The notes under the pieces were generated by a model. The model saw only the letters and a program-made list of their open reading frames with translations. It was not told the DNA's origin and made no database searches. Shown here one piece after another: positions 10,947 through 46,009 of a stretch of DNA of 64,000 bases (the stretch's first letter is position 1; the number at the start of each line of letters is the position of its first letter). The stretch is taken from NCBI GenBank assembly GCA_050257855.1, contig JBLMXQ010000040.1, positions 7,059 through 71,058 of the forward strand. Reading direction: 5' to 3'. This DNA comes from Betaproteobacteria bacterium (GTDB lineage: Bacteria; Acidobacteriota; Vicinamibacteria; Vicinamibacterales; CAVVIG01). The position numbers and the translations under genes were made by a program.

Positions 10947-12284
10947 CTACAGCGTGACCGCCCTGTCGGTGATCTCCAGGCCGCGATCGATGATCGCGAA
11001 CGCCTCGCGCATCTCCGGTTCGGTGATGCAGAGCGGCGGGTTCGTGAAGAACGAGTTCCAGCGGACGAACGTGTAGAGCCCCTCCTGGCGGAAGAAGCGG
11101 CCGAGCGCCGCCATCTCCTCCGACGTGCCGTTGAACGGCGCCATCGGCTCCTTCGTCTGGCGGTTCCGGATCAGCTCCACGAGACCGAACAGCCCGATCG
11201 ACCGCACCGCGCCGACCGACGGGTGCCGCACGGCGATGTCGGTCATCAGGTCCGACATCAGCGATCCCATCCGCTTCGCGTTCTCGATCAGCCGGTCTTC
11301 CTCGTAGACCTGCAGCGTCGCGAGCGCCGCGGCGCAGGCCAGCGGATGGCTGTTGTAGGTCAGCCCGCCGTAGAACACCCGATCCCTGAACTGATCGGCG
11401 ACGCCGCGGCGCATGCCGACGGCGCCGAGCGGAACGTACGCGCTCGTCAGCCCCTTCGCCATCGTCATGATGTCGGGCACGACGTTCCAGTGGTTGACGG
11501 CGAACCACGCGCCGGTCCGGCCGAAGCCCGACATCACCTCGTCGCAGATCATCAGGATGCCGTGCTTCGTGCACAGTTCGCGGACGCCCTGCAGGTACCC
11601 ATCGGGCGGGACGAGCACGCCGTTGGTGCCGGTGACCGTCTCCAGGATGAAGGCGGCGATCGTCTGCGGTCCCTCCAGCTGGATGACCTCCTCGAGCATC
11701 CCGAGCGATTCGTCGGCCGAATCCCACCCGCGCTCGATGCCGTGGTACGGGTCGAGCACGTGGACGACGCCCGGCAGCCCCGGCTCGGCGGCCCAGCGGC
11801 GGGGATCCCCGGTCAGGGAGATCGCGCCGGCCGTGGCGCCGTGGTAGGAGCGGTAGCGGGCCAGGATCTTGTGACGACCGGTCGCCAGGCGCGCCAGCTT
11901 CATGGCGTTCTCGTTCGCCTCGGCGCCGCCGTTCGTGAAGAAGAACACGTCGATGTCGCCCGGCGCAATCGCCGCGAGCCGCGCGCCCAGGCGCGCGCGC
12001 ACCTCGGTGGCCATGAACGGGTTCGCATAGGCGAGCGTCGAGGCCTGCTCGTGAATGGCGCGCACGACGCGCTCGTCGCCGTGCCCGATGTTCACGCACA
12101 TCAACTGGCTGTTGAAGTCGATGAAGCGCTTGCCCTCAGGCGTCCAGAAGTAGATCCCCTTGGCGCGCGCCACGGGAATGGGATCCACCTTCGACTGCGC
12201 CGACCACTCGTAGAGCGTGTGCGCCTTCGATCCGGCGATCATCTCTTCGCCGGTCATCGTCTTTGCAGTCGTGTCAGTTGCCAT
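10947..12284 (-). CDS. Class-III (omega) aminotransferase, beta-alanine/taurine:pyruvate-type
   Basis: ATG 12284 has GAGG 8 nt upstream. Motifs: FTNGGAEANENAMKLAR, ICDEVMSGFGRTGAWFA, DIMTMAKGLTSAY (PLP-lysine), typical of PLP fold-type I class III enzymes. Confidence 0.9.
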   Translation of the reverse strand: MATDTTAKTMTGEEMIAGSKAHTLYEWSAQSKVDPIPVARAKGIYFWTPEGKRFIDFNSQLMCVNIGHGDERVVRAIHEQASTLAYANPFMATEVRARLGARLAAIAPGDIDVFFFTNGGAEANENAMKLARLATGRHKILARYRSYHGATAGAISLTGDPRRWAAEPGLPGVVHVLDPYHGIERGWDSADESLGMLEEVIQLEGPQTIAAFILETVTGTNGVLVPPDGYLQGVRELCTKHGILMICDEVMSGFGRTGAWFAVNHWNVVPDIMTMAKGLTSAYVPLGAVGMRRGVADQFRDRVFYGGLTYNSHPLACAAALATLQVYEEDRLIENAKRMGSLMSDLMTDIAVRHPSVGAVRSIGLFGLVELIRNRQTKEPMAPFNGTSEEMAALGRFFRQEGLYTFVRWNSFFTNPPLCITEPEMREAFAIIDRGLEITDRAVTL

Positions 12285-12304
12285 AGCAAGCCTCGTTCGG
12301 CAGC

Positions 12305-12326
12305 GGGACGGTCTGAAGACCGTCCC
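12305..12326 (-). terminator. Perfect 9-bp stem-loop between the M28 peptidase and aminotransferase genes
   Basis: gggacggtc-tgaa-gaccgtccc. There is no clear U-tract on either strand, so it could be an attenuator or processing/stability element rather than a full terminator. Confidence 0.45.
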
Positions 12327-12383
12327 CTACCGCTTTTCCAGCATCTACTACCGCTTTTCCAGCATCTACCGCCTCGCCAGCAT
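12327..12383 (-). repeat. Three tandem copies of an 18-nt module ATGCTGGnnAnGCGGTAG; the first copy is the end of the M28 CDS
   Basis: On the minus strand: ATGCTGGCGAGGCGGTAG (12383-12366, encoding ...MLARR*), ATGCTGGAAAAGCGGTAG (12365-12348), TAG, then ATGCTGGAAAAGCGGTAG (12344-12327). The hairpin at 12326-12305 follows directly. Confidence 0.85.
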
Positions 12384-14108
12384 CGCGTCGCGCGCCGCCT
12401 TGAACTCGTTGCCGGGTGCCCACTCGGGATACTTCTCCGCCTGGGCGACCCGATACCCGACGGCGAACAGCAGCTCGAGATCCTCGCGCGCGCCGCTCAG
12501 GTCCCAGTCCGGCCTCACCTCGTCGGACGGCTTGTGATAGTCGCGCTCGGTGAACTCCTCGCGCAGCTTCTCGCCGTAGCCGGCCGGCTTGCCGATGTAG
12601 TCGACGCCGGCGTCGGGATCGAGCGCCGGCACGCCCTGCTTCGCGAAATTGAAGTGGTCCGAGCGGTAGTAGAAGCCCTTCTCCGGCTCCGGATCCGGCC
12701 GGATGATGCGCCCCTGCTCGCCCGCCACGTCCTTCGTGTAATCGTCCAGATCGGACGCGCCGTAGCCGACGAGCGTCAGATCGCGCGTGCGTCCGTGCAC
12801 GTTCAGCGTGTCGATGTTGATGTCGGCCAGCGTCTTCGCCAGCGGATAGATCGGCGTCGTCGCGTAGTACTGCGACCCGAGCAGCCCCTGCTCCTCCGCC
12901 GTGACCGCCAGGAACAGGATGGATCGCTTCGGCGCGACCGGCAGCTTCGTGTACGCGCGCGCAATCTCCAGCATCCCGGCGACGCCGACCGCGTTGTCCA
13001 CCGCCCCGTTGTAGATGCGGTCGCCGTTGACCGGCTGGCCGACGCCGAGATGATCCCAGTGCGCCGAGTAGACGACGTACTCGTCGCGCAGCGTCGGATC
13101 GCTGCCCTGAAGCTTCGCCACGACGTTGCGCGAGTCGATCGTCCGCAGCTTGTTGTGCAGCGTCATCGACGCCGAGACGCCGAGCGGCACCGGCTTGAAG
13201 TCGCGCGTCGCCGCCTGCGCCTTCAGGGCATCGAAGTCCTGTCCGGCCATCTTGAACAGCTCCTTCGCGCTGTCCTCCGTGATCCACCCTTCGATCGCCG
13301 CACGGCTCATGTTCTTGTCCGGCGTCACCAGGTCGAACTTCTCGCCGAGGTTGCCCTGGACCACCGCGAACGGATACCCGGCCGGACCCGTCTCGTGCAC
13401 GATGAGCACGCCGGCCGCCCCCTTCTGCGCGCCGATCTCGTACTTGTAGGTCCACCGGCCGTAGTACGTCATCGCCTTGCCGCCGAAGGTCTTCGGATCG
13501 AGCTGGTCGGGGTTCGATGGATCGGGTACCGGAGGATCGTTCACGAGCATGACGAGCGTCTTGCCCTTGACGTCGAGCCCCTTGTAGTCGTCCCAGTTGA
13601 ACTCGGGCGCGACGACGCCGTACCCGACGAAGACCAGCTCCGAGTTGTCGATGTGCGCTTCGGGCGCCACGTGCTTCGTCCACGCAACGACTTCGTCCTT
13701 CCACTTGAGCTGCCGGGTCTGGGAGCCCTTCTTCAGCACGAGCGGCGCGGGCGAGGCGGTGATGCCGACGAGCGGCACCTTCTGGATGTAGCTCCCGTTG
13801 GTGTTGCCCGGCTTGAGCCCTATCTTCCTGAACTCGCTGACGATGTAGTTGACCGTCAGATCCTCGCCGCGGGTGCCGGGCGCACGCCCCTCGTACTCGT
13901 CCGACGCGAGCACTTTCGTGTGCGCGAGCACGGCGCCGGTGTCGACCTGCGGGAGTTGGCCGATCGGCACGCGCTCGCCCGACTGGGCCGCGGGCGCGGG
14001 TCCGGCCGCCTTCTGCGCCGGCGGCTGCGACCGGGAGCAGGCCGTGGACGAGATGGCGGCGAGCAGGAGGGCGGCGGAGACGGTGCGAAAGAAGCGGGCT
14101 GTACGCAT
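12366..14108 (-). CDS. M28 family metallopeptidase with PA domain, probable lipoprotein
   Basis: [24 protein letters not shown] signal; HWDHLG...[17 protein letters not shown]...AEEQGLLGS...YHKPSDE. It is a paralogue of 9263..10909. Confidence 0.85.
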
Positions 14109-14118
14109 AACGGGTCGA

Positions 14119-15396
14119 TTATCCCGCGCGCGCGCCCATCAGGTCGAGGGTGGCGAGCGCCAGAATCTTCGTCGCGTTGATCAGATCCTCGACCCGGCAC
14201 CACTCGTCCGGCTGGTGCGCCATCTCGAGCTCGCCGGGGCCGTACGCCACGCAGTGCGGCACCCCGGCGATGCGCGCGACGTGCTTGTGGTCGTAGGTGC
14301 CCGGGCTGGCCACGATCGCCGGCCGACGGCCGAGAACGCGCTCGATGGACGCCTCGAGCGCCGCGACGAGCGGCGACCCGTCCGGCGTCCGTGTAGGATG
14401 AACGACCATCAGGTCGCGGACGTCGAACCGGATCCCGTCGGTCCCGGCCTGCACGCGGCCGACGAGCTCGGCGATCTCCTGCCTCGTCGCCTCGAAGCCT
14501 TCCTCGAGGAGGAAGCGCCGATCGAACACGGCGCGGCAGAGGTCCGCCACGCACGGCGTCTGAATGCCGTCGACCGGCTGCCCGCCCTCGATTCCGTTGA
14601 TGTTGATCGTCGCCTGCCGCGCGCCCTCGGGCACCACGGGCACGTCGGTCCGCCGCGAGGCGAGCTTCGGCGCGAGATCCTCGCGCACGGACTGCAGCAG
14701 CCGCCCCATGCCGTCGATCGCGCTCCGGCCGAGGAACGGCATGCTGCCGTGGCCGATCCGTCCGTGCGCCGCGACCTCGAACCAGTACACGCCGCGGTGG
14801 CCGATGCAGATCCGGTCGACGTTGAGCGGCTCGGGGATGATGACGTAGTCGGTGCGGCCGCGGGCGATACGGCCCGACTCGGCGAGGTACGCGACGCCGG
14901 CAAAGCCGCCGCTCTCTTCGTCGACGGTGCCGCTGATCTCGATCGAGCCGGGCAGCTCGACGCCGGCGCGCGCAATCGCTTCTGCCGCGAACAGCGCGGC
15001 GGCGATTCCCGCCTTCATGTCGCAGACGCCGCGCCCGTAGATCTTCCCGCCGCGCACGAGCCCGCCGAACGGGTCGACCGTCCACCCGGCTCCTGCCGGC
15101 ACGACGTCGAAGTGCCCGTTCAGGTGCACGACGGGTCCCGCCCCTCCGCGCCGCGCCCCGACGACGTTGACGCGCGGGTACCGCGCGGTGTGCTCGGGGC
15201 GGCCAAGGGCGGCGATGTACTCGACGTCGAAGCGCGCGCGCGCCAGCCGATCGCCGATGAACCGGGCGCACTCCTCGTACGCCTCGCCCGGCGGGTTGAC
15301 GGTCGGGATGCGGACGAGATCGGCGGTGAAGGCGACGATCTCGTCCGCCGCGCGATCGACCTGCTCGACGATGCGGTCGATCGGGAGCGTGCTCAC
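14119..15396 (-). CDS. M20 family metallo-amidohydrolase/peptidase (ArgE/DapE/carnosinase-type), cytoplasmic
   Basis: GTG 15396 overlaps the receptor stop (GTGA). Motifs: [31 protein letters not shown], and a C-terminal [14 protein letters not shown]. No signal peptide. The rest of track ORF 14119..17637 is a shadow of the receptor gene. Confidence 0.85.
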
Positions 15397-18300
15397 TGCC
15401 CGAAGAAGTACCGGAGGCCGAACTGGATCTCGCGGCCTCCCAGATACGTCACCGGGGTCCCGAACTGCGGACCGGACACGTTCGACACGGTCGCGACGTT
15501 CGCGCGGTTCAGCAGGTTGAACGCCTCGACGAGGACGCTCGCCGCCTGGGTGCCGAAGGCGAACTTCTTCTCGACGCGCACGTCGACGTCGGCGTACGGC
15601 TTGATCCGGAACGAGTTGCGCGGCTGGGACAGGTCGCGCTGGTCGACGAGGCCGTCGCCGTCGCTGTCGATGAGGCCGCGCGGGTTGAACGCGGTGCCGC
15701 TCCGCCAGAACGCGATGCCGCTCACGTTGACGTCGTAGGGCAGCACGGCGACGCCGTTGGCCACGAAGATGTGCGGCGCCGACTGGTTCGACGGCCCGTA
15801 GTCGTACCCGGGGTGGTTGTTGTTGGCGAAGGTCGAACCGACGGTGCCGGTCAGCAGGTTGTCGCGCGCGCGCGAGCCGGTGTACGAGACGCCGAACTGG
15901 TACCGGTCGCTGAACCGCTTGCGCGCCGACAGCACGATGCCGTCGTAGTTGACGAGGCCGTCGTAGGTCACCTCGCTGATCTGGGGTCCGCCGTCGGTCG
16001 TCTTGCCGAAGTTCGGGTCGCCGGGCGGCACGTCGAACAGGTTGATGATGCGCCGCGTCAGCAGGTCGCGCGACCGCCGGCGCACGTACATCGCCGACAC
16101 GGCGAAGTCGCCGGCGAACTGATGATCGACGCCGACGCTGAAGGCGTTGGTGTAGGGCACCTTGTCGCCCGAGTACTGCGACACCTGCCGGGTCACGTCG
16201 AGCGGCCCGCGCGGGAAGAACGACAGGACCCGGTTGCCGACGATCGAGCCGCCGGGCACGTCGAAGAACCGCCAGTCGGTCCCCGGATATTTCTGCTCGA
16301 GCAGTGCAATCGCCTGGTCGGCCGTTTTGCCCGACAACTGCTGGATGTTGTCCGCCGTCACGAGCGGCGCGTGCGCCGGGTCGGTGACCGCGATGCCGAG
16401 CAGCTTGTACAGGGCCAGCGGATCGGCGCGCAGGTCGGCCGCCATCTGCTGGTACCGCTTGTTCTCCGGCGGCCCGAACGTGTTCGGACCGGTCGGGAAC
16501 CCGCTCGTGATGACGTAGTCGATGAGCGAGTTCGTATAGTCGGCGCCGAGACGCGGCAGCGCCACGTCGAACACGGACTTCGTGAACACGCCCCCCTTCT
16601 CCGGCACCGTCGACGCCGCGGCCAGCAGGTTCCGGTCGAAGAAGAGCCCGTAGTCGGCCTTCACGATCGTCTTGTGCGTGCCGCCCACGTCCCAGGCGAA
16701 CCCGAGCCTCGGCGCGAGCGCCTTCTTGTAGCCGCCGAACAGACTCGAGTAGTCGTAGCGCACGCCCGCGTTGATCGTCACGTCGGGCAGCACCTGCCAC
16801 TGGTCCTGCGCGAAGCCCGAGACGTCGTTGGTCCTGATGTTCTGGTTCAGGCTCCCGTCGGGATTCGACGACAGCGTGAAGAACCGCGCCGCCGACCACT
16901 CGAAGCCGTAGAGATTGAAGTCCTGCGCGAAGACGTCTGCCTGGTTCGGCGCCAGGAACGCCGGCGAGTACTCGACGTCGTTGGTCACCTGCTGGTACCC
17001 GGTGACGCCGATGTGGTTGTAGTCCCAGCCGAACTTGAAGCTGTGATCGCCGGCCTTGCCGGGCAGGTAGTAGCTGAGCGCCTGCGCAACCTGGTAGCGC
17101 TTGCTCACCTGGTCGGTCTGTCCGCCGAACGGCGCTCCGGTCTGGATGAATCCGCTGCGCAGCAGCATCAGCAGCGGCTCCGACCGCTGCGACTGCCCGA
17201 GGTTGTTGCCGGTCTCCCCCCGCGCGAAGCCGAACGTCGACTCGAGGAACGTCGAGCTGCCGAATACCGCCGTCTCGCGGACGGCGCCGCTCGTCGCCGG
17301 CGTCTCGCGGGTCGCCGCCGCGCTCGGCATCGCGATCGTTCCGGCGACCGGCGAGCTGATGAGGCCGCTGTTCGTGTTCGTGCTCCGGTTGAACGTCGCC
17401 ATGAGCCGGTTGGACGGCGTCAGGTTGGCGTCGACCTTGAAGTTCCCGGTGAACGCGGCCGTCTCGGGCGCGATGCCGAAGTCCTCGACGTGGCTCGGCG
17501 TCGCGAGCCCGCTCAGCACGAATGCCGGGATCTTGCTCTTGTCGAAGTTGACGCCGCGCGTCTCGTTCAGCTTCTCGAACGATCCGAAGAAGAACGCCTT
17601 GTCCTTCACGATCGGCCCGCCGAGAGTCCCGCCCCACTGGTAGCGCTCGAGCTGCGGCGGCTTCGGCGTGACGTAGTTCGCCGGCAGCGGGCTGGGGGCC
17701 GGGATGTTGTTGGAGTCGAACCGGTCGTTGCGCGTGAACCAGAACGCCCGGCCGCCGAAGTTGTCGGTCCCCGAGCGGGTGACGATGTTGGCGACGCCCC
17801 CCTGGGCGCGGCCGAACTCGGCGGCGTAGCCGGTCGTGATGACCTCGAATTCCTTGATCGAGTCCTGCGTGTAGCGCACCAGCGCGCCGCCGTTGACCGG
17901 ATCGTTGTTCTCGGCACCGTCCACGAGATACGACACGGCGCTCGCCCGCTCGCCGAAGATCTCGACGTTGGTCGTCGACGTCAGGTTCGGATCCGGCTTG
18001 GCGCCGGGGACGAGCGCCACCAGGTCGGTGAAGTTGCGTCCGTTGAGCGGCAGCGCGTCGATCGTCCGCTGCGAGACCGTCGTCGTGATGTCGGAGCGCG
18101 TCACCTCGACCAGCGGAGCCTCGGCCGAGACCTGCACCGACTCGGAGACGCCCGCGATCGGCAGCGTGAAGTCGAGCGTCGTCTGCTGGTTCAGGACGAC
18201 TTCGACGTCGTGCCGCGTCTGGGCGGTGAAGCCGCTCAGCTCGACGGTGATGTCATACGTGCCCGGCGGGACGAGCGGAATCCGGTACGTGCCGTCGGCC

Positions 18301-18491
18301 GTCGTCGTCGCCGTCGCGCTCTGGCGCTGGAGGGACGGCCCCTTGATGGTGACCGTGGCGCCCGGGAGCACGGCGCCGCTGGCATCCTTGATGGTGCCGG
18401 CCACCGAACCGGTCACCTGCGCCCACGCCGGCGCGGCGGCGACGAGCAGCACGACGAACAAGACCACCTGCAGAACGCGACTGCGCTGCAT
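15393..18491 (-). CDS. TonB-dependent receptor with N-terminal carboxypeptidase-regulatory-like domain
   Basis: ATG 18491 after GGAGGGG. Signal MQRSRVLQVVLFVVLLVAAAPAWAQ; CarboxypepD_reg-like GTIKDASGAVLPGATVTIKG...TTTADGTYRIPLVPPGTYDITVELSGF; plug-like IDALPLNGRNFTDLVALVPG; long barrel ending ...LRYFFGQ. Confidence 0.85.
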   Translation of the reverse strand: MQRSRVLQVVLFVVLLVAAAPAWAQVTGSVAGTIKDASGAVLPGATVTIKGPSLQRQSATATTTADGTYRIPLVPPGTYDITVELSGFTAQTRHDVEVVLNQQTTLDFTLPIAGVSESVQVSAEAPLVEVTRSDITTTVSQRTIDALPLNGRNFTDLVALVPGAKPDPNLTSTTNVEIFGERASAVSYLVDGAENNDPVNGGALVRYTQDSIKEFEVITTGYAAEFGRAQGGVANIVTRSGTDNFGGRAFWFTRNDRFDSNNIPAPSPLPANYVTPKPPQLERYQWGGTLGGPIVKDKAFFFGSFEKLNETRGVNFDKSKIPAFVLSGLATPSHVEDFGIAPETAAFTGNFKVDANLTPSNRLMATFNRSTNTNSGLISSPVAGTIAMPSAAATRETPATSGAVRETAVFGSSTFLESTFGFARGETGNNLGQSQRSEPLLMLLRSGFIQTGAPFGGQTDQVSKRYQVAQALSYYLPGKAGDHSFKFGWDYNHIGVTGYQQVTNDVEYSPAFLAPNQADVFAQDFNLYGFEWSAARFFTLSSNPDGSLNQNIRTNDVSGFAQDQWQVLPDVTINAGVRYDYSSLFGGYKKALAPRLGFAWDVGGTHKTIVKADYGLFFDRNLLAAASTVPEKGGVFTKSVFDVALPRLGADYTNSLIDYVITSGFPTGPNTFGPPENKRYQQMAADLRADPLALYKLLGIAVTDPAHAPLVTADNIQQLSGKTADQAIALLEQKYPGTDWRFFDVPGGSIVGNRVLSFFPRGPLDVTRQVSQYSGDKVPYTNAFSVGVDHQFAGDFAVSAMYVRRRSRDLLTRRIINLFDVPPGDPNFGKTTDGGPQISEVTYDGLVNYDGIVLSARKRFSDRYQFGVSYTGSRARDNLLTGTVGSTFANNNHPGYDYGPSNQSAPHIFVANGVAVLPYDVNVSGIAFWRSGTAFNPRGLIDSDGDGLVDQRDLSQPRNSFRIKPYADVDVRVEKKFAFGTQAASVLVEAFNLLNRANVATVSNVSGPQFGTPVTYLGGREIQFGLRYFFGQ

Positions 18492-18510
18492 GGCATCCCC
18501 CTCCCCTCTC

Positions 18511-19971
18511 CTACCGATATCGAGCCGTGACGACCTTCTGTTCCGTGTAGAACCGCACGCCGTCCTTGCCATGGGCGTGGAGATCACCGAAGAACGACCC
18601 TTTCCAGCCGCTGAACGGGAAGACTGCGTACGGCGCCGGCACGCCGACGTTCACCCCGACCATGCCCGCCTCGACCTCGCTGACGAACCGGCGGACGGCC
18701 GAGGCATCGCTCGTGAAGATCACCGCGCCGTTGCCGTGCGCCGACCGGTTCACGACCGCGAGCGCCTCGTCGAGGCTCGCCACGCGGATGATCGAGAGGA
18801 CCGGGCCGAAGATCTCCTCGCGCGCGATCCGCATCGACGGCGAGACGCGATCGAAGACCGTCGCCCCGACGAAGTACCCGCCCTCCGGTCCCTTCGCGCG
18901 CCCGTCGAGCGCCAGGCTCGCGCCCTCCTTCACGCCGATATCGATGTAGGAGAGCACTCGCTCGCGCTGGGCGGCGTTGACGACCGGCCCCATCTCGCAG
19001 CCGGGCGCGTCGCCGGGCCCTACCTTCAGCGACGCGGCACGCTCGGTCAGCCTCGCCACCAGCACGTCGTTCGGATCGACGACGACCGCCACGCTGCCCG
19101 CCATGCACCGCTGGCCGGAAGATCCGAACGCCGAACCGAGAATCGCGTCCACCGCCGGCTCCACGTCGGCGTCGGGCATCACGACCATGTGGTTCTTCGC
19201 GCCGCCGAGCGCCTGCACGCGCTTGCCGAGCCCGGCCGCGCGCGCGTAGACCGCGGCGGCCGCCGCGCTCGATCCGACGATCGACACGGCGCGCACGAGC
19301 GGATGATCGATGAGCTGCTCGACCTGCCGCGCGCTGCCGTGGACGAGGCTGACGACGCCGGGCGGAAGCCCGGTTTCGGCCAGGAGCTCCACCAGCCGCA
19401 CGGCGGTCAGCGGCACCTTCTCGGACGGCTTCAGCACGAACGAGTTGCCGCAGGCGATCGCAATCGGCAGCATCCAGAGCGGCACCATCGCCGGAAAGTT
19501 GAACGGTGTGATGCCGACGCAGACGCCGAGCGGCTGGCGCAGACTGTAGGCGTCGACGCCGGTCGCCACGTTCTCGAGGGTCTCGCCCATCATCAGCGTC
19601 GGAATGCCGCAGGCGAACTCGACGACCTCGATGCCGCGCTGCACCGAGCCGCGGGCATCCTCGAGCGCCTTGCCGTGCTCGCGCGTGATGAGCCGGGCGA
19701 TCTCCTCCTTGTGCGCGTCGAGCAGGTCGCGATACCTGAACAGGTACCTGGCGCGCGCCGGCGTCGGCACGCGCCGCCACTGCCGGAACGCGCGGTCGGC
19801 CGCCGCAACGGTCTCGTCTATTTCCGCGGCGGTGCACAGTGGCGCGGCGGCGATGACCTCGCCGGTCGCCGGGTTGTGCACGTCGAGGCGCTCGCCGGCC
19901 GACGACTCGCGCCAGACGCCGTTGCTGAAGAACCGGCACGCCGCCGCACCGGAGCGTGTGGCCACAGTCAT
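18511..19971 (-). CDS. mmsA: CoA-acylating methylmalonate/malonate-semialdehyde dehydrogenase
   Basis: ALDH superfamily with MmsA-type features: FNFPAMVPLWMLPIAIACGNSFVLKPSE, GSSGQRCMA (catalytic Cys), and the C-terminal FPFSGWKGSFFGDLHAHGKDGVRFYT typical of MmsA. GGAG lies 9 nt upstream of ATG 19971. Confidence 0.88.
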   Translation of the reverse strand: MTVATRSGAAACRFFSNGVWRESSAGERLDVHNPATGEVIAAAPLCTAAEIDETVAAADRAFRQWRRVPTPARARYLFRYRDLLDAHKEEIARLITREHGKALEDARGSVQRGIEVVEFACGIPTLMMGETLENVATGVDAYSLRQPLGVCVGITPFNFPAMVPLWMLPIAIACGNSFVLKPSEKVPLTAVRLVELLAETGLPPGVVSLVHGSARQVEQLIDHPLVRAVSIVGSSAAAAAVYARAAGLGKRVQALGGAKNHMVVMPDADVEPAVDAILGSAFGSSGQRCMAGSVAVVVDPNDVLVARLTERAASLKVGPGDAPGCEMGPVVNAAQRERVLSYIDIGVKEGASLALDGRAKGPEGGYFVGATVFDRVSPSMRIAREEIFGPVLSIIRVASLDEALAVVNRSAHGNGAVIFTSDASAVRRFVSEVEAGMVGVNVGVPAPYAVFPFSGWKGSFFGDLHAHGKDGVRFYTEQKVVTARYR

Positions 19972-19995
19972 GATGAAACTCCGAAGAACGGCAAG

Positions 19996-20024
19996 CTTTT
20001 ACTAGAAAGATGCAAGGTTGTCAA
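19996..20024 (-). promoter_or_regulatory. Candidate sigma70-type promoter of the mmsA-receptor-peptidase operon
   Basis: On the minus strand: TTGACA (20024-20019), 17 nt, TAAAAG (20001-19996). It lies in the AT-richest intergenic stretch, about 25 nt upstream of ATG 19971. Confidence 0.45.
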
Positions 20025-20032
20025 ACTTTGCA
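20011..20032. promoter_or_regulatory. Imperfect palindrome, candidate operator of the MerR-XRE-cupin regulator
   Basis: TGCAAGGTT-gtca-AACTTTGCA has 8 of 9 arm positions complementary. It is centred on the shared TTGTCAA/TTGACAA core that provides the -35 hexamers of both divergent promoters. Confidence 0.4.
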
Positions 20033-20047
20033 GCTTTCTTGTAGGAT
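20018..20047 (+). promoter_or_regulatory. Candidate promoter of the regulator/S58 operon
   Basis: TTGTCA (20018-20023), 18 nt, TAGGAT (20042-20047), 17 nt upstream of ATG 20065. Confidence 0.35.
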
Positions 20048-20064
20048 CCCGCCACCCGTTCGCC

Positions 20065-20862
20065 ATGCCCCGCCCAACCCGGCTCGGCTTCCTGACCGTC
20101 GGTCAGACGGCGCGCATCCTCGGGGTGAGCCCGTCCACGCTCCGCCTCTGGGAAAACGTCGGACTGGTCGTGCCCGCGCGGAGCGACGGCCGCTACCGGC
20201 TGTACAGCCCCGATCTGATCAAGGTCCTCAAGCGCATCAAGTACCTGCGGGACGTGAAGCAGCTCAACGTGCCCGGCATCAAGCAGGCGCTCGGGCGGCC
20301 GGCCGTCGCCAGCGGCCACGCCGCGCCGGCCAGTTTCGGCCCGAAGCTGCGGAAGCTGCGCCAGCGCAGCGGCCTCGGCATCGCCGCCGCCGCCAGGCGC
20401 GCCCAGATCTCGGCCGGCTTCCTGAGCGCCGTCGAGCGCGCCAACGCCAACCCGTCCGTCGCCACGCTGCAGCGGCTCGCCAAGGCGTACGGCACGACCG
20501 TGCTGGAGCTGTTCAACCTGCCGCGCCAGGCCTCGCGTCTGGTGCGCGCGCGCGACCGCCGCGCCCTCCAGACTCACGCCGGCGTTACGATGGAGCTGCT
20601 CTCCACCGGCACGACGATGCTGGAGTCGATGCTGTTCCGCGTCGCGCCGGGAGGCGGCAGCGACGGCGCCTACTCGCACCAGGGCGAGGAGTTCATCTAC
20701 ATGCTGAGCGGTACACTCGAGCTCTGGCTCGACGAGTTCGAATGTCACAAGCTCCAGGAAGGCGACAGCTTCTGGTTCGAGAGCACGCTCGGCCATCGGT
20801 GGTACAACCCGTCTAAAGAGGACGCGGTGCTGTTGTGGATCAACACACCGCCGACGTTCTAG
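20065..20862 (+). CDS. Three-domain transcriptional regulator: MerR-type HTH + XRE (Cro/C1) HTH + cupin
   Basis: Residues 1-70: LTVGQTARILGVSPSTLRLWENVGLVVPARSDGRYRLYSPDLIKVLKRIKYLR (MerR HTH). Middle: GPKLRKLRQRSGLGIAAAARRAQISAGFLSAVERANANPSVATLQRLAKAYGTTVLELF (HTH_3). C-terminus: SHQGEEFIYMLSGTLELWLDEFECHKLQEGDSFWFESTLGHRWYN (cupin_2). This is the in-frame tail of the shadow ORF 17893..20862. Confidence 0.8.
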   Translation: MPRPTRLGFLTVGQTARILGVSPSTLRLWENVGLVVPARSDGRYRLYSPDLIKVLKRIKYLRDVKQLNVPGIKQALGRPAVASGHAAPASFGPKLRKLRQRSGLGIAAAARRAQISAGFLSAVERANANPSVATLQRLAKAYGTTVLELFNLPRQASRLVRARDRRALQTHAGVTMELLSTGTTMLESMLFRVAPGGGSDGAYSHQGEEFIYMLSGTLELWLDEFECHKLQEGDSFWFESTLGHRWYNPSKEDAVLLWINTPPTF

Positions 20863-20883
20863 CGAAGAGACGAGGGTCCAGAC

Positions 20884-21981
<1,098 letters not shown>

Positions 21982-22044
21982 GCGCCTGCGGGTGTCCCGG
22001 GCCCCCCCGGCGCGGCAGCCGGGCAATCTAACGGCGCCTCGCAG

Positions 22045-23454
22045 ATGAACGCCCATCTCGTCCTGCTCTTCGTCTACTCGGGCCTGCTGATCGCGCTCGG
22101 GCTGTGGATCGGCCGGCGCGTGTCCGGCACCAGCGACTTCTTCGTGGCCGGCCGGCGCCTCGGGCCGGGCCTCCTCTTCTCGACGATGCTGGCCGCCAAC
22201 ATCGGGGCGGGGTCCACGGTGGGCGCCACCGGCCTCGGCTATCGCGACGGCGTCGCAGCGTGGTGGTGGGTCGGTTCGGCCGGCATCGGATCGATCGTGC
22301 TGGCGCTGTGGATCGGCCCCGCAATCCGCCGCGTCGCCGCGGAGCACGATCTCCGGACGGTGGGCGACTATCTCGAGCATCGCTACAGCCGCAGCGTTCG
22401 CGCGGTCGTGTCCGTGCTGCTGTGGCTCGGCTCGATTGCGATCCTCGCCGGGCAGCTCATCGCGGTCGCCTGGATCCTCAACGTCGTCACCGGCCTGCCG
22501 AAGTACGCGGGGTGTCTGGTGGCCGGCGTCGTGGTCACGGTGTACTTCACGGCGGGCGGCCTGCTCACCTCGGCGTGGGTGAACATGGTGCAGCTGACGG
22601 TCAAGCTGGCCGGCTTCGCGATCGCGGTGCCGCTCGCGCTGGCGGCGGCCGGGGGCTGGGGCGGGCTGCAGTCCGCCGGGGCGGGACACCAGGGCTACTG
22701 GAACCCGTGGCAGGGCGGCGCGTCGGGCTGGATGTACCTGGCGATGCTCGGCCCAGCGTTCGTGATCTCGCCCGGGCTGCTGCAGAAGATCTACGGCGCG
22801 CGCGACGACCGCACGGTGCGTCTCGGCGTGGGCGCGAACGCGATCGGCCTGCTGCTGTATGCGCCGATTCCGGCGCTGATGGGCATCATCGCACGGGCCA
22901 GGTTTCCCTCGCTCGGCAACAGCGAGCTGGCGCTGCCGATGGTGCTGATGTACGGCGTGCCGACGGCGATCGGGAGCCTCGGCCTCGCGGCGGTCTTCTC
23001 GGCGGAGATGAGCGCCGCCGACGCCGTGCTGTTCATGCTGACGACGTCGCTGTCCCAGGACCTCTACAAGCGGTTCCTGAATCCGGCGGCGACCGATCGG
23101 CGCGTGCTGGCGGTGACGCGGGGCGCGGCCGTCGCATCGGGGTCGCTCGGCGTGGCGCTCGCGATCGTCTCGCCGTCGATCATCGGCGTGCTGAGCATCT
23201 TCTACACGCTGCTCGGCGTCAGCCTCTTCGTCCCGATCGTCGCGGGTCTGTACCTGCGGCGCTCGTCGACGATCGAGGCGCTGGCGGCCATCGCGGCCGG
23301 CGTCGCCGCCATGCTCGCAGCGCAGCTGGCGACCGGCGGCCGGGGTGTCGGCCAGCTGACGCCGGCGATGATTGGCCTCGCTGCCGCGGCCGCAGGCTTT
23401 GCGATTGTGCTCGCAGCACGGACAGGGAAGAGGCAGGATCGGTTCCGGTCCTGA
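22045..23454 (+). CDS. Sodium:solute symporter family (SSF) transporter
   Basis: About 12-13 TM segments. The N-terminal DFFVAGRRLGPGLLFSTMLAANIGAGSTVG signature is typical of PutP/PanF/SglT-type SSF carriers. Confidence 0.88.
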   Translation: MNAHLVLLFVYSGLLIALGLWIGRRVSGTSDFFVAGRRLGPGLLFSTMLAANIGAGSTVGATGLGYRDGVAAWWWVGSAGIGSIVLALWIGPAIRRVAAEHDLRTVGDYLEHRYSRSVRAVVSVLLWLGSIAILAGQLIAVAWILNVVTGLPKYAGCLVAGVVVTVYFTAGGLLTSAWVNMVQLTVKLAGFAIAVPLALAAAGGWGGLQSAGAGHQGYWNPWQGGASGWMYLAMLGPAFVISPGLLQKIYGARDDRTVRLGVGANAIGLLLYAPIPALMGIIARARFPSLGNSELALPMVLMYGVPTAIGSLGLAAVFSAEMSAADAVLFMLTTSLSQDLYKRFLNPAATDRRVLAVTRGAAVASGSLGVALAIVSPSIIGVLSIFYTLLGVSLFVPIVAGLYLRRSSTIEALAAIAAGVAAMLAAQLATGGRGVGQLTPAMIGLAAAAAGFAIVLAARTGKRQDRFRS

Positions 23455-23472
23455 AGGATTCAGTCTCCAGAC

Positions 23473-24258
23473 ATGCCGACCGACAACATCTTCTCTCTCG
23501 CCAACAAGACGGCAGCAATCATCGGCGCCGGGTCGGGCATCGGCGAAGCGGTCGCGGCGGGCGCGGCCGCGCTGGGCGCGTTCGTCGCCTGTCTCGACAT
23601 GAACGGGACCGCCGCGAAAGCCGTTGCCGGCCGCATCGGGCCCGACACGGCGGCGGCGGCGCTCGACATCCGGGACGCGCGGGCCACGGGAGAGGCGCTG
23701 GAGGCAATCGCGCGCGAGCGAGGACGCCTCGACGTCGTCGTGTGCACGCCGGGCATCAACGTGCGCAAGCTGATTCTCCAGTACACGGAAGAGGAGTTCG
23801 ATCGCGTCGTCGCGGTGAATCTCAAGGGCAGCTTCAACGTGCTGCAGGCGGCCGGGCGCGTGATGACGAAGCAGGGCAGCGGGAGCATCGTGCTCTTCTC
23901 GTCGATTCGAGCGCAGGTCGTCGAGCCCGGACAGTCCGTGTACGCGATGTCGAAGGCGGGCATCCTGCAGCTCGTTCGCGCGGGCGCGGCCGAGTTCGGC
24001 GCGTCCGGCGTTCGTGTCAACGCGATCGGGCCCGGAGTGGTCGAAACGCCGCTCACCGAACCGATCAAGGCCAACCGTTCCTGGTACGACGCGTACGCGA
24101 ACAAGAGCGTCCTGAAGCGGTGGGCGCGGGCGGACGAGATGGTCGGCCCCACGCTGTTTCTCGCGTCCGACGCGGCGAGCTACGTGACCGGCACGATTCT
24201 GTTCGCCGACGGCGGCTGGCTGGCCGCCGACGGGCGGTTCACGCCGCCGGGGATGTAA
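23473..24258 (+). CDS. SDR family NAD(P)-dependent oxidoreductase
   Basis: TAAIIGAGSGIGEA (TGxxxGxG-like), catalytic YAMSKAG (YxxxK) and NAIGPGVVETP. Confidence 0.88.
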   Translation: MPTDNIFSLANKTAAIIGAGSGIGEAVAAGAAALGAFVACLDMNGTAAKAVAGRIGPDTAAAALDIRDARATGEALEAIARERGRLDVVVCTPGINVRKLILQYTEEEFDRVVAVNLKGSFNVLQAAGRVMTKQGSGSIVLFSSIRAQVVEPGQSVYAMSKAGILQLVRAGAAEFGASGVRVNAIGPGVVETPLTEPIKANRSWYDAYANKSVLKRWARADEMVGPTLFLASDAASYVTGTILFADGGWLAADGRFTPPGM

Positions 24259-24285
24259 TACCCGGGGCCGGGGGCTGGGACGACG

Positions 24286-25347
24286 ATGGGCCATTTCAGA
24301 ATCGCGGTGATCGCAGGTGACGGCATCGGACGCGAGGTGATCCCGGCGGGCATCGGCGTCCTCCGTGCGGCGGCGCGCGGGTCGGACGTCGAATTGCGTT
24401 TCACCGAGCTGCCGTGGGGCTGCGAGCACTACCTCGCCAGCGGCCGGATGATGGACGCGGACGGTCTCGACCGGCTCTCCGAATTCGACGCGATCTATCT
24501 CGGCGCGATCGGCGCGCCCGGCGTTCCCGACCACGTGTCGGTCTGGGAGCTCATCCTGCCGATCCGGCAGCACTTCGATCAATACGTCAACCTGCGGCCG
24601 ATGCGGCTCCTGCCCGGGCTCAGGTCGCCGCTCGCCGATCGGGGCGCGGCCGACATCGACATGGTGTGCGTGCGCGAGAACTCGGAGGGCGAGTACGCGG
24701 GGGTCGGCGGGCGGCTTCACGCGGGCACGCCGCACGAGGTCGCGGAGCAGACGGGGCTGTTCACGCGCCGCGGCATCGAGCGGATCCTCAGGTACGGGTT
24801 CGAGGCCGCTTCGTCGCGGCCGCGGCGGCTCCTCGCGAGCGCCACGAAGTCCAACGCGCTGCAGCATTCGATGGTGCTCTGGGACGAGGTTGCGGAGCAG
24901 GTGCGGGGCGACTATCCGGCGGTCGAGTACCGCAAGTATCACGTCGACGCACTCGCGGCGCGCATGGTGACGCATCCGCAGACGCTCGACGTCATCGTGG
25001 CGTCGAATCTCTTCGGCGACATCCTCACGGATCTCGGCGCGGCGATCTCGGGCAGCCTCGGCATCGCGCCCGGCGCGAACATCAACCCGGAGCGGAGGCA
25101 TCCGTCGATGTTCGAGCCGATTCACGGCTCGGCGCCCGACATCGCGGGGCGCGGCATCGCGAACCCGATCGGCGCCATCTGGGCCGGCGCGCTCATGCTC
25201 GATTACCTCGGCCGCCGCGATCTGCACGATCGCGTGCTGGCGGCGATCGAGCGGGTGGTCGCCGCCGGCAAGGTGCGAACGCCGGATCTCGGGGGCAGCG
25301 CGACGACGGCCGACGTGACGAGCGCCATCACTGCCGAGCTGCGATAG
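24286..25347 (+). CDS. Tartrate dehydrogenase/decarboxylase / D-malate dehydrogenase-like beta-hydroxyacid oxidative decarboxylase (IMDH/ICDH superfamily)
   Basis: RIAVIAGDGIGREV, WGCEHYLASGRMMDADGL, FDQYVNLRP, VRENSEGEYAG, NLFGDILTDLGA, EPIHGSAPDIAG. The order and spelling closely follow the TtuC/DmlA type. Confidence 0.85.
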   Translation: MGHFRIAVIAGDGIGREVIPAGIGVLRAAARGSDVELRFTELPWGCEHYLASGRMMDADGLDRLSEFDAIYLGAIGAPGVPDHVSVWELILPIRQHFDQYVNLRPMRLLPGLRSPLADRGAADIDMVCVRENSEGEYAGVGGRLHAGTPHEVAEQTGLFTRRGIERILRYGFEAASSRPRRLLASATKSNALQHSMVLWDEVAEQVRGDYPAVEYRKYHVDALAARMVTHPQTLDVIVASNLFGDILTDLGAAISGSLGIAPGANINPERRHPSMFEPIHGSAPDIAGRGIANPIGAIWAGALMLDYLGRRDLHDRVLAAIERVVAAGKVRTPDLGGSATTADVTSAITAELR

Positions 25348-25376
25348 AGCCCCCACACCGCGAGGGACGCATCGGA

Positions 25377-25402
25377 CGCGAAGGAAGGCGCTGTCCTTCG
25401 CG
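25377..25402 (+). other. Intercistronic 9-bp stem-loop between the TDH-like and amidohydrolase genes
   Basis: cgcgaagga-aggcgctg-tccttcgcg. It starts 30 nt after the stop at 25347 and ends 11 nt before ATG 25414. No U-tract. Confidence 0.35.
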
Positions 25403-25413
25403 GCAGGCCGCAC

Positions 25414-26310
25414 ATGTTGAACGACGCCCACTGCCACTTCTTCTCCACCAGCTTCTTTGCCTCGCTCGGCCGCGGGTTGAAAGACGCGCACGAGGCGCCG
25501 GCCGAGATCGCGCTGGCGAAGCTCGGATGGGAGCCGCCGGGATCGCCGGAGCAGCTCGCGGACCGCTGGGTGGCGGAGCTCGATCGCCACGGCGTCGGGC
25601 GCGCCGCGATCATGGCGAGCGTGCCCGGCGACGCGGCGTCGGTCGCCGCCGCGGTCAACCGCCATCCGGATCGCTTCGTCGGCATGTTCATGGTCGACCC
25701 GACCGACGCCGACGCGGCTCCCGGCGCGGCATCAGCGCTCGATACGGGACGGCTGCGGACGCTCTGCCTGTTTCCGGCGATGCACCGGTACTCGCTGCAC
25801 GACGACCGCGTCGGCCGGCTGCTTCAGCTCGCGACGGCGCGCCCCGGCACCGTGGTGTTCGTCCACTGCGGCGCACTGTCGGTCGGCGCGCGAACCAGGC
25901 TCGGACTGCCGAGCCCCTTCGACGTGCGGTTCGGCAATCCGCTCGACCTGCACGCGGTCGCCGCCGCGTTCCCCTCGGTGCCGTTCATCGTGCCGCACTT
26001 CGGCGCGGGTCTGCTGCGCGAAGCGCTGATGCTGGCCGACCTCTGCCCCAACGTGCACCTGGACACGTCGAGCTCCAACAAGTGGATCCGCTATCACCCG
26101 GGACTGACGATCGACGCCGTGTTCGCGCAGGCGCTCGCAGCGGCCGGGCCGGATCGGATTCTCTTCGGCACTGATTCGTCGTTCTTTCCGCGCGGCTGGG
26201 TGAAAGAGGTCTTCGACGAACAATCCGCCGCGCTTGATCGGCTCGGCGTCTCGCGGGAGATCCGGGAGAAGATCTTCAGGGGCAACTTCGACCGGCTTTT
26301 CGCCGCTTGA
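25414..26310 (+). CDS. Amidohydrolase_2-type TIM-barrel metal-dependent hydrolase (amidase/lactonase/decarboxylase superfamily)
   Basis: N-terminal MLNDAHCHFF (HxH metal motif), a later VFVHCG, PHFG and a C-terminal ILFGTDSSFFP (Asp ligand). Length about 298 aa. Confidence 0.75.
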   Translation: MLNDAHCHFFSTSFFASLGRGLKDAHEAPAEIALAKLGWEPPGSPEQLADRWVAELDRHGVGRAAIMASVPGDAASVAAAVNRHPDRFVGMFMVDPTDADAAPGAASALDTGRLRTLCLFPAMHRYSLHDDRVGRLLQLATARPGTVVFVHCGALSVGARTRLGLPSPFDVRFGNPLDLHAVAAAFPSVPFIVPHFGAGLLREALMLADLCPNVHLDTSSSNKWIRYHPGLTIDAVFAQALAAAGPDRILFGTDSSFFPRGWVKEVFDEQSAALDRLGVSREIREKIFRGNFDRLFAA

Positions 26311-30659: not shown

Positions 30660-30815
30660 TCGGCGGCGGCGGCAGGCAACCCATGCACGTACGAAGCCCG
30701 CGCCACTCACGAGAAATACGCCCGGAGTCCGAGGACTGATTACGCGGCCGTCGCCAATGCCCGGAGGGACACCCGGGGCTGAAGTGTGCTCAGGAACCGC
30801 CGCCGGAAGCGACCC

Positions 30816-32081: not shown

Positions 32082-32108
32082 GTCGTGACGCAGCGCGTGC
32101 TCATCCGA

Positions 32109-32705: not shown

Positions 32706-32715
32706 GGCCCAATCC

Positions 32716-33471: not shown

Positions 33472-33481
33472 AGCCGAATGA

Positions 33482-33488
33482 TATAGTA
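33482..33488. promoter_or_regulatory. Overlapping divergent -10 candidates in the 34-bp AT-rich polA/lipoprotein intergenic region
   Basis: TATAGT on the plus strand (33482-33487, 18 nt before polA ATG 33506). TACTAT on the minus strand (33488-33483, 11 nt before ATG 33471). This is the lowest-GC stretch of the window (gatatagtaaaaattt). Confidence 0.35.
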
Positions 33489-33505
33489 AAAATTTCTCCA
33501 GTCTG

Positions 33506-44286: not shown

Positions 44287-44435
44287 CGAGCGTCCCCTCT
44301 CCAGGATTTGCGCGTTCCGGTGTTTATCGGCCCGACCCGCCAGGATGGACATCCCGCGGCGGACCGGGCATGGTATCACGCGGTTGACCGGAACCGGCTC
44401 AGCCGCTTACAGTCCGGGGCCGGGAGGTTGTCCGT

Positions 44436-45995: not shown

Positions 45996-46009
45996 CGCCT
46001 TCGGTGAGC

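Follow-up and report, generated by a model that had tools for sequence, protein, structure and literature searches.

A modular island of the Vicinamibacterales as a candidate locus for pantetheine and pantothenate utilization

The degradation of pantothenate (vitamin B5) by Pseudomonas P-2 was described in the 1960s as a pathway of pantothenase (EC 3.5.1.22), pantoate 4-dehydrogenase (EC 1.1.1.106), dehydropantoate dehydrogenase (EC 1.2.1.33) and dimethylmalate dehydrogenase (EC 1.1.1.84), to which, as far as we know, no genes were ever assigned. A study from 2023 reported pantothenate cleavage in E. coli and other isolates, with the pantothenase protein 'currently unknown' (PMC10393543), and our literature search on pantothenate-catabolism terms found no gene-level work. 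Here we analyze a divergent locus of 11 genes within a window of 64,000 nucleotides (assembly GCA_050257855.1, contig JBLMXQ010000040.1; "the window" denotes this whole stretch). Its minus-strand operon encodes MmsA, a TonB-dependent receptor, an M20 deacylase, an M28 aminopeptidase-like lipoprotein (M28a) and a class-III aminotransferase (AT), and its plus-strand operon a regulator, an exported S58 hydrolase, a sodium:solute symporter (SSF), a short-chain dehydrogenase (SDR), a TtuC-type dehydrogenase and an Amidohydro_2 protein (AH2). The best model that we can offer, held with middling confidence and built on sequence comparison, is that this locus may serve the uptake, periplasmic cleavage and catabolism of pantetheine or pantothenate. 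The source is a metagenome-assembled genome (MAG) of the Vicinamibacterales (Acidobacteriota). NCBI labels it 'Betaproteobacteria bacterium', the receptor and AH2 being identical to proteins of a MAG under this label, and all close relatives of its proteins and loci belong to Vicinamibacterales/Acidobacteriota; the label is probably a taxonomic error.

The protein classes of the locus can be mapped on the steps of the Pseudomonas pathway, with M20 as the amidase, SDR as the alcohol dehydrogenase and TtuC as the decarboxylating dehydrogenase, while AT and MmsA would dispose of the beta-alanine. Counterparts in Rhodobacterales and haloarchaea add the aldehyde dehydrogenase (ALDH) step, for which the window has no dedicated enzyme, whereas the window adds outer-membrane uptake and a pantetheinase-like step in the periplasm. 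S58 belongs to the same family of N-terminal nucleophile (Ntn) hydrolases as ThnT, which together with ThnR and ThnH takes part in thienamycin biosynthesis in Streptomyces cattleya. Across eight S58 homologues, N271 and T273 never vary and residue 272 is either Thr or Ser, an Asn-Thr/Ser-Thr motif which we take to be the autoproteolytic cleavage site of ThnT, a protein outside this alignment. ThnT cleaves the pantothenoyl-cysteamine amide of a pantetheinyl group and leaves cysteamine (PMC6097109). Unlike ThnT, the window S58 has a signal peptide and sits in a nutrient-uptake or catabolic locus rather than in an antibiotic cluster, and none of the adjacent genes encodes a homologue of ThnR (Nudix) or ThnH (phosphatase); a PhoD-like phosphatase is present in two related loci.

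Three further groups of known systems share parts with the locus. An S58 homologue (38–49% identical) is common to it and to the PanT/CoaX salvage operons of Firmicutes, in which S58 has no signal peptide, catabolic genes are missing and the transporter is of the energy-coupling factor (ECF) type, in contrast to the symporter and TonB-dependent receptor of the window. Lower pathways for beta-alanine and gamma-aminobutyrate (GABA), with an omega-aminotransferase and MmsA, or gabT-gabD, under a local regulator, use the same enzyme families and regulator type, but in the window AT and mmsA stand at opposite ends of a five-gene operon that also holds an outer-membrane receptor and peptidases, and the regulator has a MerR domain that PuuR does not. 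Finally, the receptor is genetically coupled to processing enzymes, as in TonB-dependent vitamin and cofactor uptake (BtuB for B12, PqqU for pyrroloquinoline quinone, the thiamine receptors of Bacteroides) and in polysaccharide utilization loci (PULs), although it is of the CarboxypepD_reg/OMP_b-brl_4 type common in Acidobacteria. A preliminary description of the locus had called it PUL-like, which does not hold in the strict sense: no protein of the locus belongs to the SusD family, and the lipoprotein neighbouring the receptor is an M28 peptidase. We know of no described receptor for pantothenate-type compounds.

Hydrolases and pan genes with links to pantothenate

The strongest evidence that the island concerns pantothenate is the presence of pan genes at the same site in related loci, which are numbered here with an L and include receptor-seeded and TtuC-seeded sets, the latter comprising 80 loci from a scan of metagenome contigs. 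In L098, a DUF2520/Rossmann (PanG-like) gene and panB, panC and panD lie between orthologues of M28a (68% identical) and TtuC (80%), with TtuC starting 52 nt after panD; they occupy the site of the window's M20, receptor, mmsA, regulator, S58, SSF and SDR genes in a backbone that is syntenic with the window (DUF1684 ... DAO-GNAT-x-PolA). L167 has a tight operon panB-panC-S58-SSF-TtuC-AH2, L175 has DUF2520-panC-panB-TtuC with 4-nt overlaps, and L142 has panC-TtuC-AH2. There are thus at least three pan arrangements at one site, one of them joined to S58-SSF, while no pan gene was found within the 64-kb window. Between the DUF2520 gene and panB of L098 (5500–5595), we also observed repeated G+C-rich palindromes (AGGCGGAC...GTCCGCCT) resembling repetitive extragenic palindromic (REP) elements.

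These arrangements also suit a reading without catabolism, in which the island would serve only vitamin B5 acquisition or homeostasis. The receptor, S58 and SSF would then scavenge for coenzyme A (CoA) synthesis and replace or supplement the panBCD of sister genomes, AT would make beta-alanine from malonate semialdehyde, and TtuC and AH2 would contribute to the supply of pantoate in some way not yet recognised. The tight operons of L167 and L175, the alternation of pan genes and uptake module at one site, and the S58 homologues in Firmicutes salvage operons all speak for it. We nevertheless regard it as rather unlikely, given that the window adds MmsA, which is irreversible and catabolic, and a regulator type found with gabT-gabD, that the haloarchaeal counterparts described below pair M20-SDR-ALDH with an AT facing mmsA, and that salvage needs none of M20, SDR and TtuC; TtuC would be superfluous even as a ketopantoate reductase in pan-type loci that already hold the DUF2520 (PanG-like) reductase.

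Catabolism of pantetheine or pantothenate, the model that we prefer, draws next on S58. When compared by phmmer with all PDB chains up to E ≤ 10, S58 had its best match in nylon-6,6 hydrolase (9cxr, 8.6e-67), matched NylC-type enzymes too, and aligned with ThnT structures at 1e-47 over residues 20–337, whereas no DmpA or BapA structure was matched even at that limit. By these matches it belongs to the ThnT/NylC branch of the P1 family, and the DmpA/BapA-like identity proposed earlier is not supported. Identity to ThnT itself was ~39% (tblastn to the S. cattleya megaplasmid), and the best plasmid match was an unannotated record of a Microvirga plasmid. Our literature searches found no gene-level work on bacterial pantetheinases and no link between nylon hydrolase and ThnT. 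In three Firmicutes lineages, C. difficile (49% identical), Anaerotruncus colihominis and E. eligens, S58 homologues adjoin an ECF S component, alongside a type III pantothenate kinase in the first two only. The three S components are homologous to one another, and that of C. difficile matches only 4rfs_S and 6zg3_C in the whole PDB, presumably the PanT chains of ECF pantothenate transporters. Since CoaX cannot phosphorylate pantetheine (PMC11487621), organisms that have only CoaX would need a pantothenate-making hydrolase, which fits the Firmicutes operon. Together, these contexts make S58 a candidate periplasmic pantetheine hydrolase. Many related loci carry a second exported S58 paralogue (~57–60% identical; L081 5405–6454, L120, L128, L143, L148, L150 and L174), usually just upstream of TtuC, where the window has a single S58; it might act on another amide bond, such as the one in pantothenate itself.

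The affiliation of S58 also bears on the substrate favoured by the preliminary description, a beta-alanyl or other beta-amino peptide. In such a PUL-like system, the receptor would import the peptide, the M28 proteins and a BapA/DmpA-type S58 would trim it, M20 would act like a carnosinase, and AT and MmsA would burn the beta-alanine. In favour of this proposal are the TonB-dependent receptor and the pair of exported M28 aminopeptidase-like proteins encoded within the operon or beside it, the beta-aminopeptidases within the S58 superfamily, the fit of AT and MmsA to beta-alanine and the richness of the window in peptidases. Yet S58 has no detectable similarity to DmpA/BapA structures, SDR, TtuC and AH2 would be left without a role, a SusD-like gene is missing, and M28 proteins are less specific as evidence in a genome where their paralogues are common (three in 64 kb). 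Nor does the proposal predict the pan-gene mosaics and the PanT/CoaX contexts, which indicate pantetheine or pantothenate more specifically; we consider beta-peptides improbable.

M20 is a candidate pantothenate amidohydrolase, forming pantoate and beta-alanine, as suggested by its contexts in other phyla. A 50%-identical orthologue in Qingshengfaniella heads the operon M20-peptide-type ABC transporter-ALDH-SDR-S58, one in Roseobacter litoralis (47%) is divergent from panC-panB with SDR-cupin-S58 ~5 kb off, and orthologues in haloarchaea (37–39%) follow ALDH-SDR. The ALDHs partnered with M20 elsewhere had their best scores against models of aminoaldehyde and betaine-aldehyde dehydrogenases. 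We observed ALDH-SDR-M20 islands on four haloarchaeal plasmids, namely L096 (Natronorubrum), L183 (Halocatena), and L097 and L184 (Haladaptatus), which also hold a C45 Ntn-hydrolase, an SSF symporter, a second M20, an Lrp regulator and a class-III aminotransferase. In the Natronorubrum and Halocatena islands, the aminotransferase faces mmsA and a beta-ureidopropionase-like 'Zn-dependent hydrolase' is present; the two Haladaptatus plasmids have the class-III aminotransferase and no mmsA in the stretch seen. These plasmid islands look like an archaeal counterpart of the window's system. The logic of import, amidase and catabolism that had been proposed for the window (Ntn-type amidase, SSF, M20, SDR, AT, mmsA) recurs in haloarchaea and, in part, in Rhodobacterales.

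Conservation and modularity of the island

The block receptor-M20-M28a-AT facing S58...TtuC was found in at least eight distinct contigs, with receptor identities of 71–100%, so the arrangement is more than chance. L001 (receptor 91% identical) and L190 (87%) have the whole arrangement, including mmsA and the regulator, while in L002, L081, L101, L191 and L192 (71–78%) S58-(SSF)-SDR-(S58')-TtuC faces receptor-M20-M28a-AT, M28b and DUF1684 lie beyond AT, and mmsA and the regulator are missing. A core of AT-M28a-M20 diverging from S58-SSF-SDR-TtuC-AH2 recurs in dozens of related contigs. Among TtuC-seeded loci, the commonest long form lacks the receptor and has AT-M28a-M20 facing S58(-S58')-SSF-SDR-TtuC(-AH2) (for example L120, L121, L139, L143, L148, L150 and L174); just one of the 11 that show M20 and the plus-strand operon has the receptor, and none of the 80 has the regulator. 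Enough sequence upstream of TtuC was available in 53 loci, and in 46 of them TtuC directly follows S58 (10), SSF (10), SDR (21) or panB/panC (5); in the rest, the upstream gene is a divergent M28a (3) or another gene (4).

The invariant backbone thus consists of AT-M28a and TtuC-AH2, with variable genes in between. The 11 genes are a mosaic rather than one fixed unit, within which mmsA and the regulator, seen only in the window, L001 and L190, are a recent, lineage-specific insertion. Of the self-contained 11-gene locus in the preliminary description, the core arrangement stands, while the view of one unit does not, given the three contigs with mmsA and regulator and the many loci without a receptor. 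Gene order was likewise conserved except at the mmsA-receptor junction, which is not retained beyond the two closest relatives; the cotranscription of mmsA and receptor, earlier singled out as unusual, is lineage-specific (window, L001, L190) and does not define the locus.

Variability of this kind raises the possibility that the island has no single substrate, and that an AT-M28a backbone facing TtuC-AH2 has an insertion hot spot in its divergent spacer for unrelated modules, such as a peptide-uptake receptor, S58-SSF, SDR, pan genes, and mmsA with the regulator. The content between M28a and TtuC is indeed highly variable and includes empty sites, with AT-M28a and TtuC-AH2 back-to-back and nothing between them (L141, L173 and L122). 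A PhoD-like phosphatase and a TonB-dependent receptor have been inserted between TtuC and AH2 in L150 and L143, the closest paralogues of the receptor stand in unrelated contexts, and mmsA and regulator are later insertions on the two sides of a dyad that was already there. But the cargo is thematically coherent, consisting of pan genes or of genes tied independently to pantothenate or beta-alanine in other phyla, its modules are joined by overlapping stop and start codons, and the M20-S58 and AT-mmsA links recur in Rhodobacterales and haloarchaea. We therefore give little credence to a hot spot for unrelated cargo and retain a shared function in pantetheine or pantothenate use as our working model.

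Two side observations concern these variants. In L001 (8365–9817), the closest relative in the genome collection, the mmsA orthologue matches in two pieces (aa 1–227 and 250–484), which could reflect a frameshift, a local assembly error or a pseudogene. The insert of L150 (10668–15792), also seen in L143, consists of the PhoD-like phosphatase gene and a TonB-dependent receptor different from that of the window, both on the opposite strand; it might remove phosphate from phosphopantetheine or CoA, or else serve phosphate scavenging with no relation to the island.

The receptor belongs to the locus in a sub-clade only, and many loci lack it. Copies with at least ~71% identity are locus-linked (L001, L002, L081, L101 and L190–L192), and copies 51–72% identical (L003–L008, L083 and L084) have unrelated neighbourhoods, with, for example, sigma factor, rhamnosidase and succinate dehydrogenase genes. 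The receptor family is unusually conserved. Scores were below 20 bits on the models of PqqU and other named receptors. M28a is part of the invariant backbone, paired with AT across locus variants; it has an uncharacterised N-terminal region of ~300 aa and distant PDB matches only (Vibrio leucyl aminopeptidase, 4e-13). M28b, which converges on the locus, has orthologues in the same position in L001 and L002 (74–84% identical), and genes with M28 and PA domains are found there in L081, L191 and L192.

Lower pathway, control region and layout

AT and MmsA both pass their family cut-offs and fit beta-alanine catabolism, in agreement with the lower pathway proposed earlier, transamination of an omega-amino acid followed by MmsA. 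Both enzymes are also linked to TtuC in other permutations of the locus, SDR-TtuC-mmsA-like in L177 and L178 and SDR-TtuC-AT in L171. The best PDB match of AT is taurine:2-oxoglutarate aminotransferase (6jix, 4.8e-111), and a 46%-identical orthologue in Natronorubrum is divergent from mmsA. We propose that AT converts beta-alanine, and possibly also hypotaurine or taurine, with malonate semialdehyde as the product from beta-alanine. In most related loci, SSF comes directly after S58. Among named subfamilies it scores highest as PanF (TIGR02119), though at 88 bits it falls far below the cut-off of 328; it is proposed to import the periplasmic product, pantothenate or an amino compound. SDR is a candidate pantoate or pantolactone dehydrogenase. 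TtuC, the invariant anchor of the locus, is structurally closest to tartrate dehydrogenase (PDB 3flk, 2e-119) and is a candidate 3,3-dimethylmalate dehydrogenase that would form 2-oxoisovalerate. Its assignment as a ketopantoate reductase was considered and rejected, because pan-type loci already have the DUF2520/PanG-like reductase gene.

AH2 abuts or overlaps TtuC in L167 and L121. Its sole PDB match is the uncharacterised BB4693, it had no match in NCBIfam, its plasmid matches are at most 30% identical, and its best 120 database relatives are all at least 68% identical. A Foldseek search with its AlphaFold2 model (predicted local distance difference test 82) returned lactonases (LigI, COG3618) and decarboxylases (LigW, ACMSD), all at a template-modelling score of ~0.6, making AH2 a candidate lactonase or decarboxylase.

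The matches of AT and S58 also allow for the catabolism of another omega-amino-acid or amine amide, such as nylon-like oligoamides, N-acyl polyamines or conjugates of taurine or hypotaurine, with S58 as an endo- or exo-amidase and AT acting on the freed amine. Nylon-6,6 hydrolase and NylC-type enzymes among the matches of S58, taurine aminotransferase as the best match of AT, the aminoaldehyde/betaine-aldehyde dehydrogenase scores of M20-partnered ALDHs elsewhere and the amine contexts of distant SSF homologues point this way. Such a substrate would leave the links to pan genes and to PanT/CoaX, as well as TtuC, unexplained, and the activity on nylon was seen in a screen with a synthetic polymer; we deem it very improbable. 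Pantetheine and pantothenate remain the substrates that we favour.

The regulator is not a PuuR equivalog, as judged by its 63.6 bits against the PuuR model (cut-off 211) and by its extra N-terminal MerR domain. Full-length homologues (42–44% identical) in Shinella and Sinorhizobium are divergent from gabT-gabD, and this type of regulator therefore appears to control pairs of transaminase and semialdehyde dehydrogenase, in line with the local regulation that had been suggested. A spacer of 93 bp separates mmsA from the regulator and contains a dyad-symmetric element. The element overlaps -35/-10-like hexamers of both strands, has overlapping -35-like hexamers at its centre, and folds as DNA with z = -6.6. 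Its skeleton, TTCTACTAGAAA-arm-GT(T/A)GTCAAAC-arm'-TTCTT(G/A)TAG(G/T)AT, is kept in L001 and L190 and also in L081 and L002. Given that the latter two lack both genes, the control element seems to predate mmsA and the regulator, which were inserted at its two sides. The inner arms differ in L081 and L002 yet stay self-complementary; RNAalifold found no compensatory pairs in the dyad, the L081-type arms being shifted by 1 nt, and single-sequence folds were used instead. The arms in the window share TGCAAG-like half-sites with the Shinella gabT spacer, which is weak evidence. Lineage-specific regulators may use the dyad as their operator, or it may form a structural hairpin.

All 11 genes and M28b were confirmed at the positions and in the families first described, and the junctions and spacers likewise (Table 1). 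The mmsA-receptor gap of 19 nt is purine-rich (GAGAGGGGAGGGGGATGCC), the receptor stop codon and M20 start codon overlap in GTGA, as read in the sequence, and M20 and M28a are 10 nt apart. In the spacer between M28a and AT, a 19-nt direct repeat (GATGCTGGAAAAGCGGTAG) is present in two copies, overlapping the M28a stop codon, and is followed by a hairpin (GGGACGGTC-ttca-GACCGTCCC) of 9 bp that is G+C-rich and has no T-run; the terminator scan found no terminator-like site in this spacer, which is missing in some relatives (AT and M28a abut in L112). By their coordinates, the plus-strand genes are separated by 21, 63, 18, 27 and 66 nt. The scan of the operon junctions gave no convincing terminator, the sole plus-strand call in the divergent spacer being the dyad itself. 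Searches of the whole window with Rfam (gathering threshold) and for tRNAs found nothing, and hence no known riboswitch. On inspection of the N-termini by eye, signal peptides were seen in the receptor, S58 and M28b and a lipoprotein-like start in M28a, and M20, AT, MmsA, SDR, TtuC and AH2 have no signal peptide and look cytoplasmic. The multi-compartment system envisaged earlier, with its receptor in the outer membrane, its hydrolases exported, its symporter in the inner membrane and the remaining enzymes in the cytoplasm, is borne out. G+C content is ~70% across the whole window.

Table 1. Coordinates of the genes and elements of the locus in the window, and of the dyad skeleton in related loci.
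Feature	Position	Strand	Description
M28b	9263-10909	+	Exported M28 metallopeptidase, weak PA-domain match; Pfam M28 1.4e-40; convergent on the locus
AT	10947-12284	-	Class-III aminotransferase, Aminotran_3; NCBIfam PRK06062 536 bits (cut-off 472)
M28a-AT spacer	12285-12365	-	81 nt; direct repeat and hairpin
M28a	12366-14108	-	Lipoprotein-type M28 aminopeptidase-like protein; Pfam M28 9e-48
M20	14119-15396	-	ArgE/DapE-type deacylase; NCBIfam PRK13013 628 bits (cut-off 428)
TonB-dependent receptor	15393-18491	-	CarboxypepD_reg + Plug + OMP_b-brl_4 (Pfam)
mmsA	18511-19971	-	CoA-acylating (methyl)malonate-semialdehyde dehydrogenase; TIGR01722 652 bits (cut-off 448.5)
Dyad-symmetric element	20000-20043	.	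Arms 20 nt, centre 4 nt; inside the 93-bp divergent spacer
Regulator	20065-20862	+	MerR + HTH_3/31 + Cupin_2 (Pfam); in frame of a longer open reading frame
S58	20884-21981	+	Exported P1-family Ntn hydrolase; Pfam S58 7e-43
SSF	22045-23454	+	Sodium:solute symporter; Pfam SSF
SDR	23473-24258	+	Short-chain dehydrogenase; Pfam adh_short
TtuC	24286-25347	+	Tartrate/D-malate dehydrogenase family; TIGR02089 524 bits (cut-off 470)
AH2	25414-26310	+	Amidohydro_2 TIM-barrel protein (Pfam)
Dyad skeleton in L001	8283-8346		
Dyad skeleton in L190	8452-8515		
Dyad skeleton in L081	9915-9978		
Dyad skeleton in L002	9914-9977		

Further genes of the window lie on both sides of the locus. A group II pyridoxal phosphate-dependent decarboxylase (3760–5589, plus strand), nearest to diaminobutyrate decarboxylase and the PanP aspartate decarboxylase and far below the cut-offs of both, is a conserved neighbour of the island in L081, L098 and L192 and could be a source of beta-alanine. 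On the other side (28236–36205), a second CarboxypepD_reg-type TonB-dependent receptor is followed by a DAO-family (pipecolate-oxidase-like) oxidoreductase, a GNAT protein, a 251-aa protein with no family match and PolA; DAO-GNAT-x-PolA is syntenic in L098. The stretch 42949–56530 is rich in peptidases, with M23, a third M28 paralogue (44436–45995), M49 and a dipeptidyl peptidase IV/S9 protein, which fits a proteolytic lifestyle and makes it harder to read a specific role into the M28 pair of the locus.

Proposed model and its meaning

Family memberships, gene order, conservation and genomic contexts were read directly from the data, and from these we infer every substrate named in the model. 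In this model, the Vicinamibacterales would have a modular island devoted to the vitamin B5 part of CoA, and the locus would be one of its variants, extended in the window to inducible catabolism. The receptor would bring a pantetheine-containing compound (pantethine, pantetheine, possibly phosphopantetheine or CoA fragments) across the outer membrane, and the exported S58, as its homology and context suggest, would cut the pantothenoyl-cysteamine amide in the periplasm to yield pantothenate and cysteamine. SSF might then import the product, an assignment that we make with reserve, and the cytoplasmic M20, as its operon partners elsewhere suggest, would split pantothenate into pantoate and beta-alanine. 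From there, AT and MmsA, in keeping with their families, would take beta-alanine via malonate semialdehyde to acetyl-CoA, while SDR and TtuC could lead pantoate via dimethylmalate to 2-oxoisovalerate, as in the Pseudomonas pathway, and the valine route that follows would end again at MmsA. AH2 may hydrolyse (keto)pantolactone or help in decarboxylation. The regulator would act on the dyad, control both operons and make the system inducible, and part of the imported pantothenate may simply feed CoA synthesis.

Several points weigh against this model. A TonB-dependent catabolic system would here be dedicated to a nutrient as scarce as pantothenate, the model explains neither the two M28 peptidases nor the ligand of the receptor, and, given the empty sites, AT-M28a and TtuC-AH2 could be mere backbone neighbours. 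Salvage or homeostasis would account for the cotranscription of pan genes with S58, SSF and TtuC no less well than catabolism does. In the PDB, S58 is matched best by a nylon-oligomer hydrolase whose natural substrate is not established, and M20 orthologues in Azospirillum, Paracoccus and Ideonella have uninformative neighbours. SSF is only weakly PanF-like and not a PanF equivalog, and its distant homologues stand in amine-catabolic contexts, none in pantothenate contexts. Additionally, the window SDR is just 30–35% identical to the M20-partnered SDR of Rhodobacterales and haloarchaea, the TtuC-family orthologues on alphaproteobacterial plasmids have varied neighbourhoods, and the locus has no dedicated ALDH for the 4-dehydropantoate/aldopantoate step, its only ALDH being of the MmsA type, whereas the counterparts in Qingshengfaniella and haloarchaea have a separate one.

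More broadly, and tentatively, the locus and the M20-SDR-ALDH(-S58/C45)-AT-mmsA islands of Rhodobacterales and haloarchaea may together represent the orphan pantothenate degradation pathway of bacteria and archaea, which in the Vicinamibacterales would be fed by a new route, TonB-dependent uptake of pantetheine compounds derived from CoA and a periplasmic ThnT-like pantetheinase. The pantothenase would then be a PRK13013-type M20 (or an S58 paralogue), the SDR would serve as pantoate dehydrogenase and the TtuC-type enzyme as dimethylmalate dehydrogenase, and S58/P1-family 'peptidases' would be general bacterial pantetheinases of primary metabolism.

We conclude that the locus is best read as a nutrient or vitamin utilization locus, and that it has a considerable chance of closing a long-standing gap in the assignment of genes. 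The alternation in situ of panBCD with an uptake and cleavage module is a clean natural case of biosynthesis swapped for scavenging. The turnover of pantothenate and CoA in the environment is poorly understood and, if the model is true, there would be testable gene candidates for four orphan EC numbers, the widespread 'P1/S58 peptidase' family would gain a role in primary metabolism as bacterial pantetheinase, and pantetheine salvage by CoaX-only organisms would be explained. The system would also be the first for TonB-dependent uptake of a B5 vitamer, in an abundant and barely cultured soil order.

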